Shown here in pieces: positions 9,574 through 31,907 of a stretch of 64,000 bases of DNA (positions are counted from its first letter, which is position 1; each line of letters starts with the position of its first letter). This DNA is from Kiritimatiellia bacterium. GTDB lineage: Bacteria > Verrucomicrobiota > Kiritimatiellia > CAIVKH01. The notes beneath the pieces are model-generated. The model did not search any database. It had not been told where the DNA came from and saw only the letters and a list, made by a program, of their open reading frames with translations. Where the stretch lies: contig JAOSKE010000003.1 of NCBI GenBank assembly GCA_027493775.1, positions 269,761-333,760 on the forward strand. Reading direction: 5' to 3'. The translations under genes were made by a program, and so were the position numbers.

Positions 9574-9726
9574 CGGCGCAAATCATTACGCACTCAATTC
9601 CCGCTGTCACGAGTTATTACGTAAAAACTTGGTTTTATTTTTGCCCCGCCGAGGTGGGCGGAGCGATCAGCCCCGCCCCCTATCCAGCCCGAAGAAGTGG
9701 CGCCCCTTCACCTCCGAACGCTTCGA

Positions 9727-11052
9727 CTACGATTCCCCCGCAGGGAGTCTTCGGGGTTTCGATGCCGCAAACTTTGCCGTCATGGTCGGATTGTTGCGTG
9801 TGAGCTTCTTGATGGTCAGGTCCTCCGCCTTTTCGTTGGCAAGACGAAGATGGTTTTCGGAGCCAAGCAGGGAATCTTTTATCCTTTGCAGGCTCGCGAT
9901 ATTCTTATCGATCTCCTTAATTGCGCCCTGAAATTTTTCAGACGCCAGACGATAATTCCGCCCAAATGCATCTTTGAAGCTCGCCAAACTCGCTTCAAAA
10001 TTCGTGACGTCAATATCACGCGCTTTCACTTCTGCGAGCTCTTTCTTGTACGCAAGAGACTTCAACGAGGCATTGCGCAACAGCGTGATAAGCTGAATGA
10101 AAAACTGCGGACGGATGACGTACATCTTTGGATAACGGTGTGACACATCCACAATACCGGTATTGTACAACTCGCTATCGGCCTCAAGGAGCGAGACCAG
10201 AACGGCGTATTCGCACTTCTTTTCCCGACGGTCCTTGTCGAGTTCCGCGAGGAAATCCTCGTTTTTCTTCTTCGTGGCGGTCGTTTCGCTCTCATTCTTC
10301 ATTTCAAACATAATGGAAACGACCTCAATCCCATCCGGATCGGACTCGCGAAAAATATAATCCCCCTTGCTCCCCGTCCGCGCGTCCGTGTCCTTCTCGA
10401 AATACGCGGTCGGAAATGCGCTCGGACGGATTCGGTTAAATTCCGTTTCGCAGTGTTCCTCCAGCGTTTGCCCGACCATTTTGGTGGAGAGCTTCGCCTT
10501 AAAATCCTGGAGACGCTTAATGGTCTCGTCACGATCCTTGATTTGCGTCTCAAGCCGTTCTTTGAGCGCCTTCTCCCCAAGCTCCCTCTCGTACTTGAGC
10601 CGTTCCATATCCGCTTTCAGAGCATCTCGTTGTTTTTCGATGTTACTGACTGCTTCTTGCATCCGGTTTTTCGCTTCCGCCGCGCTAAGTTTCGCCTCGT
10701 TTTCCTTATCGAGTCGGGCCTGCTCAACTTCGTGCGCCAGTTGATCTCGTTCTTTTTGCAGCTCTCCTAGCGCTTGAGTGACAGCCAGTTGGCGTTCGGT
10801 ATTGCTCCCTTCGAGTTTGGCCTTAAGCTCACGGACTTCGGCATCCTTTGCTGAGAGCGACTCCTGTAATTCCTGCTTCACCTTCGCCTCGGCGAGCTCC
10901 ACTGCGTCGCCTTTTTCACGCGCCGCTGCAGCGAGCCGCTCATGGATTTGCTTGTCAAACTCCTTATCCCGAACCTGCTTCAGAATACTCGCATAGCCAG
11001 CCTCATCAATTTTGAAAGCCTTCCCACAATGCGGACAGCTAATTTCATTCAT
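9727..11052 (-). CDS. DUF2130 family protein (N-terminal CPHC, long coiled coil, C-terminal nuclease-like domain)
   Basis: [21 protein letters not shown] start with a GGAGG-like RBS; [16 protein letters not shown]; [10 protein letters not shown]; IMFEMKNE; [10 protein letters not shown]. Confidence 0.85.
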
Positions 11053-11081
11053 CGCTTCCTCCTTTTTATGATTTTGTTTGC

Positions 11082-12527
11082 TTAACAATTGAACTCATCT
11101 CCCGGTGACGCCGGGTTCGCACGAATGACCTGTGCTTCCTTTTTTGCCTCCCTAGCCTGTTTTGGACGTCGGCTTTTTTCATAAATGCCAGCGATAGACT
11201 CCAACACCTCGGCCAGTCTGAGGTGGTCTTCCGTAGAAAAGGCGCGCTTCCTGCAATTCAAACGGCGATCACGCCGCGATTTCCCACATACAATCGCAGT
11301 TTTAAACAGCTCCTCGGCTATGGAGAGTTGGTTTTGGGCCAAATAGAGGTTTGCCATATCAACCAGCCCTTGATAGTGCTCGGGAAGCGGTAGAACCATT
11401 GGAGGACTATCGTGAAAGAGCGATTTAAACGTGTATAGAGCCTGGTCAATCTGCCCCGTCGCACGATAGAGGTGTGCCAGCTCAAGCTTGTATTTCGGAT
11501 GATCGAGATGGCTCGTGCTGCTTCTCGCGCCCTCCCTATTCGCCAGCGCATGCTCATAGAGGCTCACCGCTTTATTCGTTTTGCCCAGCGCCGCGCAAAT
11601 TCGCGCATGGTTCCCGGCAAGCTCTGTGATTGCGCCTTCATCCAACTCGGGCGTTTGCTCGGCTAGGTTCAGCGCGATGCCATAGTGCTTTTCTGCATCA
11701 TGAAGTTCGAATTGCACAGCGAAACACTCCGCAATGCATTTATGCGTCCGCCACGACTGGTAAGCATTCTCTCCATACATAACCTCTTCCATTTTTAAGG
11801 CCGTTCTATACAGATCCATCGCTCGGCCAAACTCGCCTTCCTGTACATAGAGATCGCCCAGATCAACATTCGCCTTCGCCCCGACAGCACTTATCGGGCC
11901 ATACTTTTTCTTCGCACTCGACAAGGCTTTTCCAAAGCACTTCTTCGCTTTTGCTCGTTCACCGGAATCGCGGAAAACAACATATTTTCTTCCCAAACCG
12001 AGCCACAGACTCGGCAGCACGGGAGAATCTGGACAATGTCTGAAGGCGAGCGCCAAGGCTCTGCGGTAAATCGTCGTCGAGTTGAAGCTCCCAAACCTTC
12101 TACCGATCTCACACAACTGATAGAGGGTATAAACAAACGTCGGGTAGTCTTTATTTTTGGATTCCATTTGAATGGTGTGGGACAGCCGATAGAACAGCGC
12201 TGTGAACATATAGCATTTCATCTTATAATTGATCTCTGCCAACGCATTGAGACCGGGGACAAGCTCTACGGCATTAGCGCCATACCACCGCTCATTAATG
12301 GCAATCACTCTCATCCACAATGATTCGGCCTGCCGATACTCCGCAGGGGTGGTACATCTCGCAGTTACCGACTGCAGCGAATGCTCAACCTGCTGCTGAT
12401 AGCGCTTCGGCTTTCGCATGAACAGTTCAAGGGCCTGTTCGATAAGCCGAACGGCTTCCTGATGCTTACTCTCATCCAGAAGGCCTTCCACCTGCTCAAC
12501 TAACAATACGATCTGTTTAATAAACAC
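11082..12527 (-). CDS. Tetratricopeptide-repeat protein; visibly more AT-rich than its neighbours
   Basis: 481-aa ORF with repeated helical TPR-like units ([22 protein letters not shown]; [21 protein letters not shown]). Confidence 0.7.
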
Positions 12528-12865
12528 CTCCTTGTTTGTGGCTTAATCGTTTAAGGCATTGGGGCGCAATTCGACGCCGCAAGTTATATTCGTTTTTACC
12601 TTACTGAGCGCCTTAAGCGGCGCGACCCACTCGCTTCAAACCCTGGATCCACTATTTATGTCGGCGGCATGCTATAAGTGCCTCGACAAATCCTAAAAGG
12701 GTGTGGACAGTATGGTTTGAAAGAATGCGCGGATCATAATCCTTATATTAAGATAGTTCAAGCTTAATCTTCGAGATTCTTAGCTTTTTTCAGCTATCTA
12801 ATATAAATCTACGTTAGTTTCTGGAGATCAACGACTCACTCTTGAGAAACAACGGAACGCTGCAC

Positions 12866-13717
12866 TCAACTGGATAAGTTCAGTTCTTCGCTTGATCGAG
12901 CAAGGGAGGCAAAAGGGGCCTGGGTTGTGATTTCGGCGTTTAAACGGTCTAGCGCTTCATCGTTTTTCTGTGGGTCGTGATGAATCAGACGCAAACGCGG
13001 GATACCGAGCGAGGTGGCAAGGGCCAGCCCTTCTTCCCAAGTCGAATGCCCCCAGCCTCTAAATTTTTCGTATTCGGACGCTTCATATTGCGCATCCATC
13101 AACAACAGATCAGCAGGTTTTGGCTGCACACAAAGAGCACGCAGCAAGCTTTGCTCTTCTTCTGAAGACTCTGCCCATTCGACATCCGTTGCAAACACAA
13201 GCGAAGCGCCGGTTGCTGGCTCGTCAATCCGATAGGCCGTGCAGCCGCCGGGGTGATGCAAGGGGCACCAGCGGATTTCAAGTCCGTCCCAACGCAACGG
13301 ACTGCCGTTTGCGGCGGCGGGCAGCGATTCAAATTGGATGCTGGCGGCAAGGTCAGACACCTGCAGAGGCCAAAACGGCTTGTCCATGATTCGGCGCATA
13401 ATGGACTCAACATCGAATTCCTGATGTTTCTGCGCGGCGATTTTTATCCGCCACTCCTTGTCGTACAGCAGACCAAGAGAGGGCAGACCAACAATGTGAT
13501 CCAAATGATAGTGCGTGATGAGCAATAAAACAGAGCGGGAGCCGGGGTCTTCCGCAAGTCGGGCACCGAGCGAACGGATTCCCGTTCCCGCGTCAATTAA
13601 AATACGCCCGCCCGCCTGGCTCTCAATGAGCAGAGAAGTCGTCTCGCCGCCGTACTTCACAAAATCCGGCTGCGCGACTGTATTCGTTCCCCGCACTCCA
13701 CCAATAATCAGCTTCAT
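12866..13717 (-). CDS. MBL-fold metallo-hydrolase (RNase Z / class II phosphodiesterase-like)
   Basis: GVRGT...YGGETTS, ILIDAGTG, THYHLDH (HxHxDH), HPGG, TDVE, GHST and HHDP. Confidence 0.88.
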   Translation of the reverse strand: MKLIIGGVRGTNTVAQPDFVKYGGETTSLLIESQAGGRILIDAGTGIRSLGARLAEDPGSRSVLLLITHYHLDHIVGLPSLGLLYDKEWRIKIAAQKHQEFDVESIMRRIMDKPFWPLQVSDLAASIQFESLPAAANGSPLRWDGLEIRWCPLHHPGGCTAYRIDEPATGASLVFATDVEWAESSEEEQSLLRALCVQPKPADLLLMDAQYEASEYEKFRGWGHSTWEEGLALATSLGIPRLRLIHHDPQKNDEALDRLNAEITTQAPFASLARSSEELNLSS

Positions 13718-26827: not shown

Positions 26828-26914
26828 GGTGGGATAGCGAAGTGGACAAACGCATCAGACTGTAAATCTGACGGCTTACGCCTTCAGAAGGTTCGAATCC
26901 TTCTCCCACCACCA
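26828..26914 (+). tRNA. tRNA-Tyr(GTA)
   Basis: GGTGGGATAGCGAAGTGG...CAGACTGTAAATCTG...GGTTCGAATCCTTCTCCCACCACCA with a long variable arm. Confidence 0.97.
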
Positions 26915-26920
26915 CTTTGA

Positions 26921-28252
26921 GGTTCTCCACCAAAAGAGGGGGCAAGGCCGCTCGGTTCTCCACCAAAAGAGGGGGCAAGGCCGCTCCTCATCAACAACAG
27001 CAAGCTCTCACTCGGAGCCTATAGTTGTCAAAGTTCTTAAATCCGAAAGCGCGGCGGCTGATCATCTCCATTTTGTTATGAAAGCCTTCGGTGATCCCGT
27101 TATTGCGGCTGAAGCGCCACATACGTGCAATCTCATCCTGCCAAGCCTCCAGTGTTTGGCCTAGCGTGACCAGGCTGGACATGGGGGCTTCTTTGAGTTG
27201 CTGGATACGGGCCAAGAACTCCCGAATCCTCGGCCCGACAAGCCGAAGGATTGAGTCCCGCCAGCCGCAGCAGTTCCCAGAGTTCTTGTTTGAAGCAATA
27301 CAATGCTTCGATGGCAGGATGCGCTTGCAGATATCGGCCGAGATTCTGAGCCTGATCAGGCTCAAGTCGATCAGCACGGCGACGCAACAGGGAACGCAAC
27401 CCGCGGTTTCGGCTCTGCACCGGGTCGAGCTGCCGCCAGAGCTGATGGATGGTGTGCCCGATGAGTCGCATGACGTGGAAGCGATCCGCCACAATCTGGG
27501 CACGCGGAAAGTGTCTGCGCACGATCTCCCGGTAGCTTGAGGACAGATCTATGCAGACCACTCGCACCCTGTGCTTGTCCGGCAGCTTCGCCAGATAGCT
27601 TTCCAGCGCCGCTTCCGAGCGGCCTAGCACGACGTCATAGACCCGATGATGCTGCAGGTCACAGAAGGTGGTCGCATAGCCGTCCTTGCGAGTGAAGAAG
27701 TGCTCGTCGATCCCCAACACCCGAGGACAGGGAGCGTTCTTTCTCTCGGCCATCTTTCGCGTCAGGAACCGATGGTACCAGCGCTCGATGGTAGCAGAGC
27801 CCAAACCGGTGCGCCGGGCCAGCTGGCGCTGACAAATCCCGTCATGGTGATCTTGGCAGACCTCGTTCCGAAACGGCTCGGTGGCGCGCTGATACGGCAG
27901 AAGCCCCTCGAATCGTTGCCGAAAATAGCGTCCACATCCCCGACATAAATACTTGTATCCCCGCAGGATCAACCAGACTAACCGCTCTCCGATGCTCTCG
28001 TGTCGCACCCTTCGGACAAACGGACATTTCTTCCGCAGTTGAACTGATTCACAATGCGGACACCGCACCGGGCCGGTGTAATCAGCCTCAATCAATACGG
28101 GGTTGCGATCTTCGCACTTTCGGATATGCAGAAAGGGCAGATTCAGAATACTCTCATCATTCAAGGGCATGGTCGTCTCCTTTTGGGTTTATTTCACCGA
28201 GACCATTGTATGGTCTCAGGAGCGGCCTTGCCCCCTCTTTTGATGGAGAACC
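26921..28252 (-). mobile_element. ISL3-family insertion sequence with one terminal IR duplicated in tandem; no target-site duplication visible
   Basis: 33-bp IR GGTTCTCCA(C/T)CAAAAGAGGGGGCAAGGCCGCTC at 26921-26953, 26954-26986 and, inverted, 28220-28252. Confidence 0.9.
26991..28170 (-). CDS. ISL3-family transposase; apparent frameshift near 27235
   Basis: CPHC zinc finger, LGIDEH, VCIDLSSSY, VADRFHV, NNGITEGFHNKMEMISRRAFGFKNFDNYRLRV. Confidence 0.92.
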
Positions 28253-28325
28253 CGCATCTTGAGCCGTGTGCAGGCCGTCCCCCTCGCGGCGCTGACGGGG
28301 TGTCCACCAAATCGGGGGAACTCCA
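28253..28325 (-). mobile_element. 73-bp remnant of an IS3-family element end
   Basis: TGGAGTTCCCCCGATTTGGTGGACAC (minus, 28325-28300) closely resembles the IR of the IS3 at 63378 (TGAGCTTCCCCCGATTTGTGAACAG). Confidence 0.7.
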
Positions 28326-28767
28326 CCTGGGTGTTTCTCAAGGAGACTGCGGAGCCCATCAGCGACGTTCCTGAAGCCTTCCTCCATACTGTGCCAGTGG
28401 CGGCTCACAACAGCCTTACCATCCTCCGGCAGGGCTTTGAATTGGCGCAATGCAGGGATCTGCCAGTCGCATTCCCGAACTATGCTCGGCACGATCCTTG
28501 CTTTCCCGTCTTCTGGCGCACAAGCGCACGGGCGAATTCCTTATCATAACAGTAGTTGGAGTTAATGAAGGAGGAACTGACGAGCAGAAGGTACAACTCC
28601 GCATCCTCGATTTCGGCGCTAACATGATCGTCGATGACATCTCCCGCACAGATTTCTCGGTCCGTCTAGGTGTCGAGGAGTCCTTGGCGACGCAGGGCAG
28701 CAAGATGCTCGTGCAATTGCGTGAGAAGGTCTGCGTCCTTGTGTGAGTAGGAAATGAACGCACGCAT
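28326..28767 (-). pseudogene. TIR-domain protein, interrupted (in-frame TAG, an apparent frameshift near 28500, C-terminus cut by the IS3 end)
   Basis: MRAFISYSHKD...LLDT*TDREICAGDVID...LLLVSSSFINSNYCYDKEF...IVPSIVRECDW: canonical TIR_2 motifs. Confidence 0.85.
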
Positions 28768-28780
28768 AGTGTGTCGCCGG

Positions 28781-29785
28781 CTACTTTCCCTTCCTTCCGT
28801 CAGCCAGAATCGTGTCTGGATACGGGCCAAGGAAGCGTTCGCCGTTGAAGTGCACAACGTGGTCAGGGGCTTCGGCGATCCAGACCTCCGTTTCCCATGA
28901 GATTTGACTCAGAAACCGCCCCATTGCATCGCGCGTTTCAAACGCCGTTACAAAGACAAGACCGCTGGGGAAGCCAGAGAAGAGGTCCTTGAGTTCTCGG
29001 CGACGTTTTCCATCCACCACACCCGCGCTTGTCACGGCCTCACCGATCACCAGCCATCGGCGGTTCGGGTCATACACGACAACATCCGGCATCTTGGCCG
29101 CAGAGTCGATTACGACCCCGAGACGCTTGAAGTAGTCTGCTTCGAAATGCTGAAACTTGTTCTCGGCGTCTCCCACGTAGAGAACCACACCGCCCTGAAT
29201 GAATCGGGTGCAGAAGTTTTCGATGAACGATTTGATGAGGGGGTTCTGACCACCCGGCGACAACGTGATCTCACCGCCCGACGGTAGGCGCACTGGGATG
29301 CGGGCAATGTCCCTCGCTCTACGGAGTTCACGCTTGATCTCATCTCGTGACTCCGAATAACGCTTGAGCGAGGCCGCCCAACCGGGAGCCTTGAACGTCC
29401 TGCACAGTCGAAGCGCCGTTGGCTCGATCTGGTACACGGTCTTGCCGCTGTTGGTTGGTCGGTTCGGGTCATCGGGGTTCTTCACGAGAAGCCCCTCTTC
29501 AACGAAGTACTTCACGGCCTCGTCACGGATGGTTTCGCGTGTGTTGGGGGCATAACGCAGACGGTACTTGTTTGCGACAAAGTCGATAATTGGCGTGATT
29601 CCGCGGAGTGGATCCTGCGCACCGGTCCAGTCGTCATACGGGCCAAGATCGAGAAGTGCGAGAAGGACATAACCGGCGACCTCGTTGCTCTGTCTTGGGC
29701 CAAAACCCATTGAGCGGAGAATTGCCATCGCCTCCTTCAGTTTCCGCGCGCCGCGCGGCTTCCCTTTGCTCGAAGTTGGATTCAT
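28781..29785 (-). CDS. BsuBI/PstI-family type II restriction endonuclease
   Basis: YAPNTRETIRDEAV, PNRPTNSGKTVYQIE, LSPGGQNPLIK, KMPDVVVYD..WLVIGEAVTSAG, ISWETEVWIAEAPDHVVHFNGERFLGPY. Confidence 0.92.
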   Translation of the reverse strand: MNPTSSKGKPRGARKLKEAMAILRSMGFGPRQSNEVAGYVLLALLDLGPYDDWTGAQDPLRGITPIIDFVANKYRLRYAPNTRETIRDEAVKYFVEEGLLVKNPDDPNRPTNSGKTVYQIEPTALRLCRTFKAPGWAASLKRYSESRDEIKRELRRARDIARIPVRLPSGGEITLSPGGQNPLIKSFIENFCTRFIQGGVVLYVGDAENKFQHFEADYFKRLGVVIDSAAKMPDVVVYDPNRRWLVIGEAVTSAGVVDGKRRRELKDLFSGFPSGLVFVTAFETRDAMGRFLSQISWETEVWIAEAPDHVVHFNGERFLGPYPDTILADGRKGK

Positions 29786-31359
29786 GCCTCCAACTCTCCT
29801 TGCACGATGTGGTCAATGTCATTCTGCTCAAGGGTGTCTTCCCCAATACAGTTTCCTATGTTGCGCAATTGCCCGGCCGTGGGGAACCCTACGTTGCGAA
29901 GATCAGTTGCATTCACTTGGGTATGACCGTTGAACTGCCGGAAATAGAGGTCCAACGCCGACGAGTTCAGATAGGCCCACAATCCCTTTGCTAGGGGCAT
30001 GTCGAGGCCTCTTCCGCTGGCGTGAATGTAGTTCAGGTGGTTCTCGAACCCGATCCGCTGCGCTTTGACACGGCCTGGGTCGTAGATGCACGCGACCACT
30101 CGCCGACGTTCCTCCTTGGATGTGAATCGCTTGGTAAGAACGTAGACGCCAGTCGGAACGAGGAGGTTTGCCGTTTGTTCCCTGTCTAGAATCGCGTTTG
30201 GCTTGCGCGAGCGCTCTCTCGGCCACGCCACGAAAAGGCCGTCAAAGTGGCACGGGTAGATCAGAGGACTTGCGCCGGATTCAGGCTCTTGCCGGATGTA
30301 TTCACGCGCCCGAAAATCCACAACCCGACCTGTCGAAACCGCGAGGCCAAGAGTCGAAAGGCTCGCGCTCAACTGCGCCACTTGGACACGAGCGGCAACA
30401 TGCTGCGCGGAAGTCGGGATGTGAATGAAGGCCTCGGGATCACGGGGTGAGACGATTTCGGATACTGGAAAGGCGCGATTGCAGACGACGTCCCCGTCGT
30501 CACCGCCGCTCTGTGAAACCCGGATTGTTCGGGGTTGGTGAGAATCTTTGACAGCATGGAGAATCACGTTTTCTTGCAGCACGTTGTCGTGCTTGAAAGC
30601 CGCAGTGCGCGATTCAAAGACATGAAGTCTTCGGAATGACATTTCCGCCAACAGCCTTCGACGAAACGGCTTGAAATACGGGCCATTGCAGAAACTGCGA
30701 GGTGTTATCGCAACGAGTTCACCGTGTGGCCTAAGCAGGCTGATGATCAGATTCAGGAACGCCGTGTACAGGTTCGTTGTCTCAGCTTTCACGGCCTGCA
30801 ACAGGCGATAATCTGCGGATGCTGTAGAGAGTTTCCCATAAGGCGGATTGACGATGGCAACGTCAAAGCTCTGCGGTGTTCCGGAAAAGAAATCATCTCT
30901 TACCATGTCTGCACCTTCGGCGATAAAATCGGCATTGCGGATGTTCGCCGAGAACGCGACGCCCCGCTTCTCGCAGGCGGCGCGACACGCTTCATAGGTC
31001 TCCTCGATCCCCTGAATCATGGCGTTGTCCACTTCATAGGCAACGATTTCAATGCACTGCGGGGTTTTCTTGTGGAGCAATTGCTGACGAACGAAAGCAG
31101 CCGAAAGAATGCCCATGCCCGCCCCGGCATCGAGTAGGCGGATTCGCTGGGAATGGACGCGGAACATCGTGGCCATGAGTTCGGCAACGTGCGGGGGTGT
31201 AAGGAATTGGCCGTATTCCTTCTGCTGTCGAGGATTTGCGGAGGCGAAGTAACGGGCACGGAGTGTGTCCGGTATGGACAGCAGGTGCCGATAGTCCTGC
31301 GATGGGCTATCGCAACCCTCGCACCGCCTCTCAATCATCGCTGTTGTCATTGTGTGCAT
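29782..31359 (-). CDS. N6-adenine DNA methyltransferase (Eco57I / BsuBI-PstI type)
   Basis: GQFLTP, LDAGAGMG, NPPY, TNLYTAF, FENHLNYIH, FRQFNGHTQVNATDL; ATGA overlap with the REase. Confidence 0.93.
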   Translation of the reverse strand: MHTMTTAMIERRCEGCDSPSQDYRHLLSIPDTLRARYFASANPRQQKEYGQFLTPPHVAELMATMFRVHSQRIRLLDAGAGMGILSAAFVRQQLLHKKTPQCIEIVAYEVDNAMIQGIEETYEACRAACEKRGVAFSANIRNADFIAEGADMVRDDFFSGTPQSFDVAIVNPPYGKLSTASADYRLLQAVKAETTNLYTAFLNLIISLLRPHGELVAITPRSFCNGPYFKPFRRRLLAEMSFRRLHVFESRTAAFKHDNVLQENVILHAVKDSHQPRTIRVSQSGGDDGDVVCNRAFPVSEIVSPRDPEAFIHIPTSAQHVAARVQVAQLSASLSTLGLAVSTGRVVDFRAREYIRQEPESGASPLIYPCHFDGLFVAWPRERSRKPNAILDREQTANLLVPTGVYVLTKRFTSKEERRRVVACIYDPGRVKAQRIGFENHLNYIHASGRGLDMPLAKGLWAYLNSSALDLYFRQFNGHTQVNATDLRNVGFPTAGQLRNIGNCIGEDTLEQNDIDHIVQGELEA

Positions 31360-31907
31360 TTGCTAGAGAAACGCTAGCCCTTATTGGCCGCGAACTCAAT
31401 CACAAACAAGGCCAGCACTTGCAGCAAGCTTTTCGTTGGGTGCAGGAAAGTGAGAACACTTTTCAACCGAAAGCCCCCACTTCCATCCGGGTTTTCGGTG
31501 AAAATTGACCGCATCCGCCTTCGTGAACGGAGCGCGAAGCAACCGGCATAACACGGCGTCGCGCCGTGGCGTGACGGGTGTGCGCGTAGTGAACCCGGTG
31601 AAGCGGGACCGCAGAGCGCAGCGACTCCAGAGCGGGCAAGCGTGTGCCAGCCGGAGCACTGACGGGCGCAAGAACGAGAAGAGTGACCGGCAGGTTCTTG
31701 CCGTCGAAAAGGCAAATGGCCCTGATATTTTCACCGTAGGCGCTCACTCAGGGCGAATTGCAAGGCCGCCTCTCATCGAATCGCTCGTCATCATCGGCGA
31801 AAAATGAAGATGCAAAACGGGGCCTATAAACTCGTTTATCCAGCAGTCAATGCGGCGAGAAGCGCATCGGGCTTGCAAGATTTCTGAAACACGGAATAAC
31901 TGGGGAT

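Follow-up and report, generated by a model that had tools for sequence, protein, structure and literature searches.

A TIR pseudogene behind an intact BsuBI/PstI-type restriction-modification pair in a Kiritimatiellia bacterium, and its relatives in restriction-modification operons

To our knowledge, toxins embedded in restriction-modification (R-M) operons have long been recognised, in the form of PrrC, Fic/Doc, RhuM and HEPN proteins, and PrrC is the only one of them that is mechanistically understood. The embedded toxins, which comprise PrrC/RloC, other HEPN proteins, Fic/Doc, RhuM and paraMORC fusions, are thought to become active when restriction fails (PMC3710099, PMC12707154). Here we analysed a TIR gene lying behind a type II R-M gene pair in a 64,000-nucleotide stretch of a Kiritimatiellia bacterium (contig JAOSKE010000003.1, positions 269,761 to 333,760, forward strand; this whole stretch is hereafter called the window, and positions are counted from its first letter). 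We found that the TIR gene of the window is a pseudogene, that the R-M pair in front of it is intact, and that relatives of the gene recur in R-M operons, mostly of type I. The intact gene probably encodes (we would put this at about 0.6) a TIR member of the R-M-embedded second-line toxins, which was lost here, leaving a plain R-M system. A search of the literature for TIR genes inside R-M operons found no paper on them; only the general concept of embedded toxins was covered.

Several described systems share part of this arrangement. PrrC, in the type IC locus EcoprrI, and RloC are likewise effectors encoded inside an R-M operon, presumed to form a second line and built from a toxin head and a regulatory part. 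PrrC is an ABC-ATPase-HEPN tRNA (anticodon) nuclease, whereas the protein considered here would combine a TIR domain, a fold that cleaves NAD+, with a winged-helix tail. Its host system is of type II, its relatives stand between hsdM and hsdS, and the likeness to PrrC is read from the genes. Fic_N-Fic-winged-helix (SoFic-like) proteins of type I loci have a homologous tail and occupy the same operon niche, Fic/Doc toxins being known from R-M operons (PMC3710099); in our case a TIR head takes the place of the AMPylating Fic head. ThsB of Thoeris is also a bacterial TIR protein with a conserved glutamate, and it was the top PADLOC model for the remnant in the window. Unlike ThsB, the clade studied here has no ThsA in its neighbourhoods, bears extra C-terminal modules and is located in R-M operons. 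Finally, Cat1, TIR-SAVED, AbTir and SPARTA TIR-APAZ resemble it in that a TIR domain is fused to a sensor, and oligomerisation would trigger NAD+ cleavage. The putative sensor would here be a winged helix or another small domain, and not CARF, SAVED or APAZ.

The two R-M genes of the window were identified by open reading frames (ORFs), Pfam and PADLOC, and both were intact. The first (29782-31359, minus strand) encodes a type II N6-adenine methyltransferase (MTase) of 525 residues, similar to M.PstI and BsuBI. It matched the Pfam models Eco57I (2.4e-13) and N6_Mtase (3.1e-10) and, over residues 30-520, the PADLOC model MTase_II (1.3e-158); the motifs NPPY (as VNPPYG) and AGAGMG were readable in its translation. 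The second (28781-29785, minus strand) encodes a BsuBI/PstI-family type II restriction endonuclease (REase) of 334 residues. Both of its domains, the N-terminal helix-turn-helix domain (BsuBI_PstI_RE_N, 3.5e-39) and the C-terminal catalytic domain (BsuBI_PstI_RE, 2.6e-55, profile positions 1-154 of 154), were covered in full, and PADLOC REase_II matched residues 15-322 (8.7e-114). The cognate gamma-class MTase gene lies directly upstream, and its stop overlaps the REase start through the letters ATGA at 29785-29782. The same overlap of M and R, which is usual for PstI/BsuBI systems, was present in two annotated plasmid PstI-type systems. In neither of these did we find a TIR gene downstream, and they differ from the locus studied here in having no third gene of this kind. 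The R-M pair of the window is thus an ordinary, intact and translationally coupled BsuBI/PstI-type system, with M followed by R. Because it has been kept intact without a functional TIR gene, the R-M system is independent of the TIR effector.

The third gene is reduced to a remnant (28326-28767, minus strand), which corresponds to codons 1-147 of a 261-codon orthologue encoding a TIR-winged-helix protein. At the nucleotide level it is 94.8% identical to the intact gene of L001/L003. Its ATG at 28767 lies 13 nt beyond the REase stop and opens the sequence MRAFISYSHKD, a beginning typical of bacterial TIR proteins. The read-through translation matched TIR_2 (1.6e-15) and PADLOC ThsB1 (PDLC00420, 1.6e-42). 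It kept the S-N-Y-C-Y-D-K-E motif, including the conserved glutamate of S..YC..E (Glu77, codon at 28537-28539, minus strand), which was invariant in 21 homologues. Three lesions were read by three-frame translation and alignment to intact orthologues. Codon 34 (28666-28668, minus strand) is TAG in place of TGG, the codon of the orthologous loci L001 and L003, and Trp34 is invariant in the clade. One G has been lost from a run of G at codons 87-88 (at about 28505-28509, minus strand, from the alignment to L001 and L003), causing a -1 frameshift. Lastly, nucleotide homology to the intact orthologues ends at 28326/28325, at codon 147 of 261. The longest open piece starting from the TIR ATG comprises 33 codons. 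The REase gene itself ends in TAG, which shows that this genome does use the codon as a stop.

We also considered that the stop and the frameshift were errors of sequencing or assembly. This was ruled out, since contigs from eight public metagenome runs belonging to several studies (wastewater, bioreactor, biofilm) agreed with the window at every position of the TIR remnant that they covered, be it the whole remnant or a part. The lesions are therefore real and were found in every run examined; the premature stop, in particular, showed no variant in the contigs of four metagenome runs. Thus, with its three lesions, the TIR gene of the window is a pseudogene. It cannot give rise to a TIR protein and should be labelled a pseudogene in annotations. 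The initial annotation had described an MTase-REase-TIR operon with the ATGA overlap, the 13-nt gap and a retained SxYC..E motif with its catalytic-type glutamate, and the ORF coordinates and the glutamate codon (28539-28537) bore this out. The left edge that it had given, 28326, is exactly where homology to the intact orthologues stops. The loss of the C-terminal part that it had proposed was real (truncation at codon 147), but the account was incomplete, because the TAG at codon 34 and the frameshift had also made the gene dead. Contigs of a run labelled metatranscriptomic spanned 28224-31302, which is compatible with read-through transcription of the remnant, although carry-over of DNA may also explain it.

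When the read-through protein was used as a query, 81 homologues were retrieved, most of them 257-273 residues long. The closest intact one, P0001 (261 residues), was 94% identical over residues 1-147. Its gene lies directly behind a BsuBI/PstI-type REase gene, with the same 13-nt gap, and is followed by radC. It was found on four metagenome contigs encoding an identical TIR protein, which probably represent one lineage. Residues 1-145 of P0001 were modelled by AlphaFold2 with a predicted local distance difference test score (pLDDT) above 90, from an alignment of the TIR part only, and the tail came out at low confidence. Foldseek matched the modelled domain to the TIR domains of MAL, Cat1, SARM1, AbTir and SPARTA, which supports a predicted TIR fold, and the top sequence match in the PDB was the CRISPR-associated NADase Cat1 (4.6e-9). 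Nucleotide identity between the window (28326-30880) and L001 was mosaic, amounting to 94.8% for the TIR segment, 79.8% for the REase gene and 74.8% for the 3' part of the MTase gene. The accessory gene therefore seems to share a separate and more recent history, compared with its R-M hosts, as one would expect of a swappable cassette. The high identity of the TIR segment also implies that its inactivation in this genome must be recent.

The part missing from the window copy could be identified from its intact orthologue. An exhaustive search with the last 116 residues of P0001 gave 580 significant matches. Among 148 tail-bearing representatives that were scanned, 26 were Fic proteins, many of them with a Fic_N-Fic architecture, six reached the SoFic-like_C model and none had a TIR domain. 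The C-terminal approximately 100 residues of P0001 were homologous to the tails of Fic_N-Fic proteins (phmmer values down to 1e-28). By homology, the lost C-terminal part is accordingly a Fic-type (SoFic-like) winged helix, deleted from the window copy, and P0001 appears as a rare chimera of a TIR head and a Fic tail. This supplies the missing domain that the initial annotation had asked to be identified. The Fic proteins with the closest tails were also located in R-M loci: the P0087 gene follows an N6_Mtase gene with a 4-nt overlap, and the P0098 gene lies between hsdS and hsdR. With a shared winged-helix module under TIR and Fic heads in the same operon niche, the tail would be the place to seek the control of such toxins.

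The C-terminal part joined to the conserved TIR head varies within the clade, and at least four alternatives were distinguished. The Fic-type winged helix, found in the PstI-linked protein, is called module A. Module B (about 90 residues) gave no match in a Pfam scan; in an AlphaFold2 model of a B-type protein it was predicted to form a small alpha/beta domain (pLDDT 65-86). Module C (about 170 residues) is helical and had a Pfam ORF6C match below threshold (E = 0.01). In one further clade protein, an NB-ARC-TPR part is fused to the TIR head. R-M embedding went along with module B, as 12 of 17 B-containing proteins were encoded in type I operons, compared with one of eight proteins with module C only. 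A common origin of modules A, B and C was tried with hhalign and could not be claimed, the probabilities being about 1% or less. Three-part proteins of 423-441 residues with the order TIR-module C (about 170 residues)-module B (about 90 residues) were observed in L010, L013, L015, L017, L094, L096, L097, L099 and L100.

We then compared the genomic context of two groups of TIR loci. The close clade comprised the loci with at least 54% TIR identity, mostly from Verrucomicrobiota, and the distant clade comprised TIR proteins of about 313 residues. A position inside a type I R-M operon was found for 14 of 31 close-clade loci; for the distant clade the number was 12 of 129 loci, counted within 10 kb (Fisher p = 1.3e-5). 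After dereplication at 90% identity, eight of 22 lineages were embedded in type I operons, in the interval between hsdM and hsdS, and one was PstI-linked. P0009, which is 68% identical, exemplifies this: its gene is inserted between hsdM and hsdS and overlaps each of them by 4 nt. One further lineage follows a ResIII helicase gene and two follow a GHKL ATPase gene, all with overlapping stop and start codons, and one of the GHKL loci adjoins a type III system. The genes are thus tightly spaced and on the same strand as the R-M genes, the spacing being a 13-nt gap in the window and in L001 and L002, and a 4-nt overlap in the type I cases. The 160 related loci that were examined, drawn from GTDB genomes and from JGI metagenomes, contained no further PstI-linked copy. 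These data indicated that the R-M linkage of the TIR clade is recurrent for R-M systems generally, mostly of type I, and is not specific for the PstI family. The proposal that TIR homologues follow BsuBI/PstI-type R-M genes therefore held for P0001, while the recurrent partner turned out to be type I R-M.

A census of 134 neighbours in 33 close-clade loci was dominated by HsdM, HsdS, DUF4062-HATPase_c_4, ResIII, AAA_13 and RhuM. The protein with DUF4062 and HATPase_c_4 (AlbA_2/Schlafen-like) recurred in type I operons, where its gene separates hsdM from the TIR gene (L012, 4905-6590; L019, L096, L097 and L098), and RhuM occupied this place in L008 and L095. The locus of P0009 (L005, 1-16822) had, in its hsdS-hsdR interval, additional genes of defence type, namely those for CTD7 and MC3 of ABC-3C systems, for an AAA_13/SMC ATPase and for an LmuB_C protein. 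On the upstream side of hsdM it contained a gene cluster encoding an ADP-ribosylglycohydrolase, a Macro protein and another ADP-ribosylglycohydrolase. The distant TIR proteins of about 313 residues, which are of the full-length PADLOC ThsB1 type, were often encoded on plasmids or by type IV secretion or TraG_N-like genes, and stood alone without ThsA in L179 (a Sulfitobacter plasmid), L034, L040, L047 and others.

The interpretation that we favour, namely that the intact gene encodes a second-line toxin of the R-M-embedded class, is founded on its gene order and coupling to R-M genes, its TIR fold with a conserved glutamate, its domain make-up, its recurrent R-M embedding and the lack of a conserved partner of the ThsA type. 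From these we infer NADase activity, abortive infection and the existence of a trigger. In the mechanism that we propose, the intact TIR gene would be co-transcribed with the R-M genes and its product would stay silent until infection. The C-terminal domain would then detect the trigger or serve to dock the protein, upon which the TIR domains would oligomerise and cleave NAD+, so that the infected cell would be arrested. In the window, the gene has decayed through a nonsense codon, a frameshift and deletion of its 3' half, and at a later time an ISL3 element was inserted close by. The idea of an R-M-coupled TIR effector, put forward in the initial annotation, is in this respect reasonable for the intact gene, with its 13-nt gap in the P0001 locus and its clade in R-M operons, but it does not apply to the pseudogene of the window. 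If correct, our interpretation adds a TIR-headed variant to the class of R-M-embedded toxins, and the intact orthologue represents a compact three-gene system that can be tested in laboratory strains.

A number of observations weigh against this interpretation. More than half of the clade lineages lie outside R-M operons; the gene of P0002, for instance, belongs to a defence island and has no R-M gene within 8 kb, and the forms with module C only are mostly found elsewhere as well. In L018 and L023, the TIR gene is followed by genes for NB-ARC and CHAT proteins. With such diverse contexts, the coupling to R-M may be a loose one. For the PstI link, the evidence comes from the four contigs that share one TIR protein, probably of a single lineage. 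Modules A, B and C had no detectable homology to each other, so that a common sensing mechanism is not supported. The comparison of the two clades also has its limits, as the type I queries were drawn from these same loci and may undercount R-M genes around members of the distant clade, ORFs were called in a crude way, and several contigs were too short to judge.

We considered three other explanations. The one that survived best, although we regard it as improbable, is that the protein is an autonomous phage-sensing TIR found near R-M genes merely because defence genes cluster and travel jointly. The defence island, the STAND and CHAT neighbours and the lone plasmid copies of the distant clade would fit with this, as would the different degrees of nucleotide identity of the TIR segment and the two R-M genes between lineages, which point to a history of its own. 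However, such an explanation would hardly account for the precise insertion into the hsdM-hsdS interval in eight independent lineages, where the genes overlap by 4 nt, nor for an enrichment (45% compared with 9% in the sister clade) that is tighter than the usual clustering in islands.

Still less probable, in our estimation, is a guard function like that of PrrC. According to this explanation, TIR-winged-helix proteins (with module A or B) would be bound in a silent state to R-M enzymes with an N6-adenine MTase, the tail serving for docking, and phage anti-restriction proteins that disable the R-M enzyme would release them as NADases that deplete NAD+. The tail would perhaps contact the MTase that is common to type I and PstI-type systems. 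The genomic position is of the same kind as that of prrC in ecoprrI (PMC12707154, PMC3710099), the stop and start codons of the TIR genes overlap hsdM and hsdS, a PF02384-type MTase is present in both the type I and the type II host systems, and the Fic proteins embedded in R-M loci use the same tail. On the other hand, the genes of some clade members come after those of helicases or GHKL ATPases, or are solitary, modules A and B have no detectable relation, and the R-M pair persists intact without TIR in this genome. As to the window copy itself, for which R-M guarding had initially been suggested, a pseudogene with three lesions guards nothing. Should the guard explanation prove true, Fic and TIR warheads would be exchangeable on one and the same docking tail, and this tail would represent a module by which R-M-embedded toxins are controlled in general.

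The last explanation, that the protein is an orphan ThsB making a signalling nucleotide for a ThsA-like effector encoded elsewhere, as in Thoeris, appears very unlikely, since its ThsB1 match and the weak ThsB_TIR Pfam matches of relatives are set against a window island consisting of M, R and the remnant only, with no adjacent ThsA (SIR2-SLOG or Macro/TM), against C-terminal modules that canonical ThsB does not have, and against the absence of SIR2, SLOG and Macro from the top 25 neighbour families of the census, by which composition the system is not Thoeris despite the match.

The surroundings of the remnant gave information on the order of the events. The lost 3' part of the TIR gene is replaced by 73 nt unrelated to the intact gene (28253-28325, no strand assigned), followed by an insertion sequence (IS) of the ISL3 family (26954-28252, minus strand). 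The IS has inverted repeats of 29 nt (28252-28224 and 26954-26982), between which lies a DDE_Tnp_ISL3 transposase gene (1.7e-36) that is split by a frameshift into the ORFs 28170-27133 and 27503-26991. A target-site duplication and an intact transposase gene were not found, as the flanks differ and the gene is split. The IS letter at 27234 was missing from the metagenome contigs aligned there. The element is multicopy, with a depth of about four times that of its flanks, and polymorphic: in four runs, long contigs without the IS linked 28251 via about 47 nt to the flank with a tRNA-Tyr gene. Truncation of the TIR gene by the IS as the primary event was ruled out, since homology stops 73 nt short of the IS end. 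The IS-free alleles X11, X14, X16 and X19 already hold the truncated TIR gene, about 120 nt from the tRNA-Tyr flank, which indicated that the 3' half was deleted first and that the IS came later. In the intact relative L003, the TIR gene is followed by radC (1103-1717), encoding a protein with UPF0758_N and RadC JAB domains. This gene is absent from the window, and the deletion therefore took at least the TIR tail and its radC neighbour.

On the far side of the IS, a solo extra copy of the terminal repeat (26921-26949, plus strand) lies 4 nt from the first one; it is exact, so that the terminal repeat is tandemly duplicated on the tRNA side. It stands beside the tRNA-Tyr(GTA) gene (26828-26914, plus strand), where the small island ends in this direction. 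On the MTase side, the island is flanked by purN and hisG, with a purN-like ORF starting from 31908. The island thus consists of M, R and the remnant only, enclosed by the tRNA-Tyr gene on one side and housekeeping genes on the other. The intergenic stretch from the MTase start to purN (31360-31907, no strand assigned) is where the promoter of the operon would be expected; a search of it for a sigma-70-like site found none, and the metatranscriptome contigs thinned out within it.

Elsewhere in the window, positions 9700-13000 have a low GC content (48-52%, compared with about 57%) and encode a 453-residue coiled-coil protein that starts with a zinc ribbon, as well as a TPR-like protein of 481 residues. 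This region may be another acquired islet.

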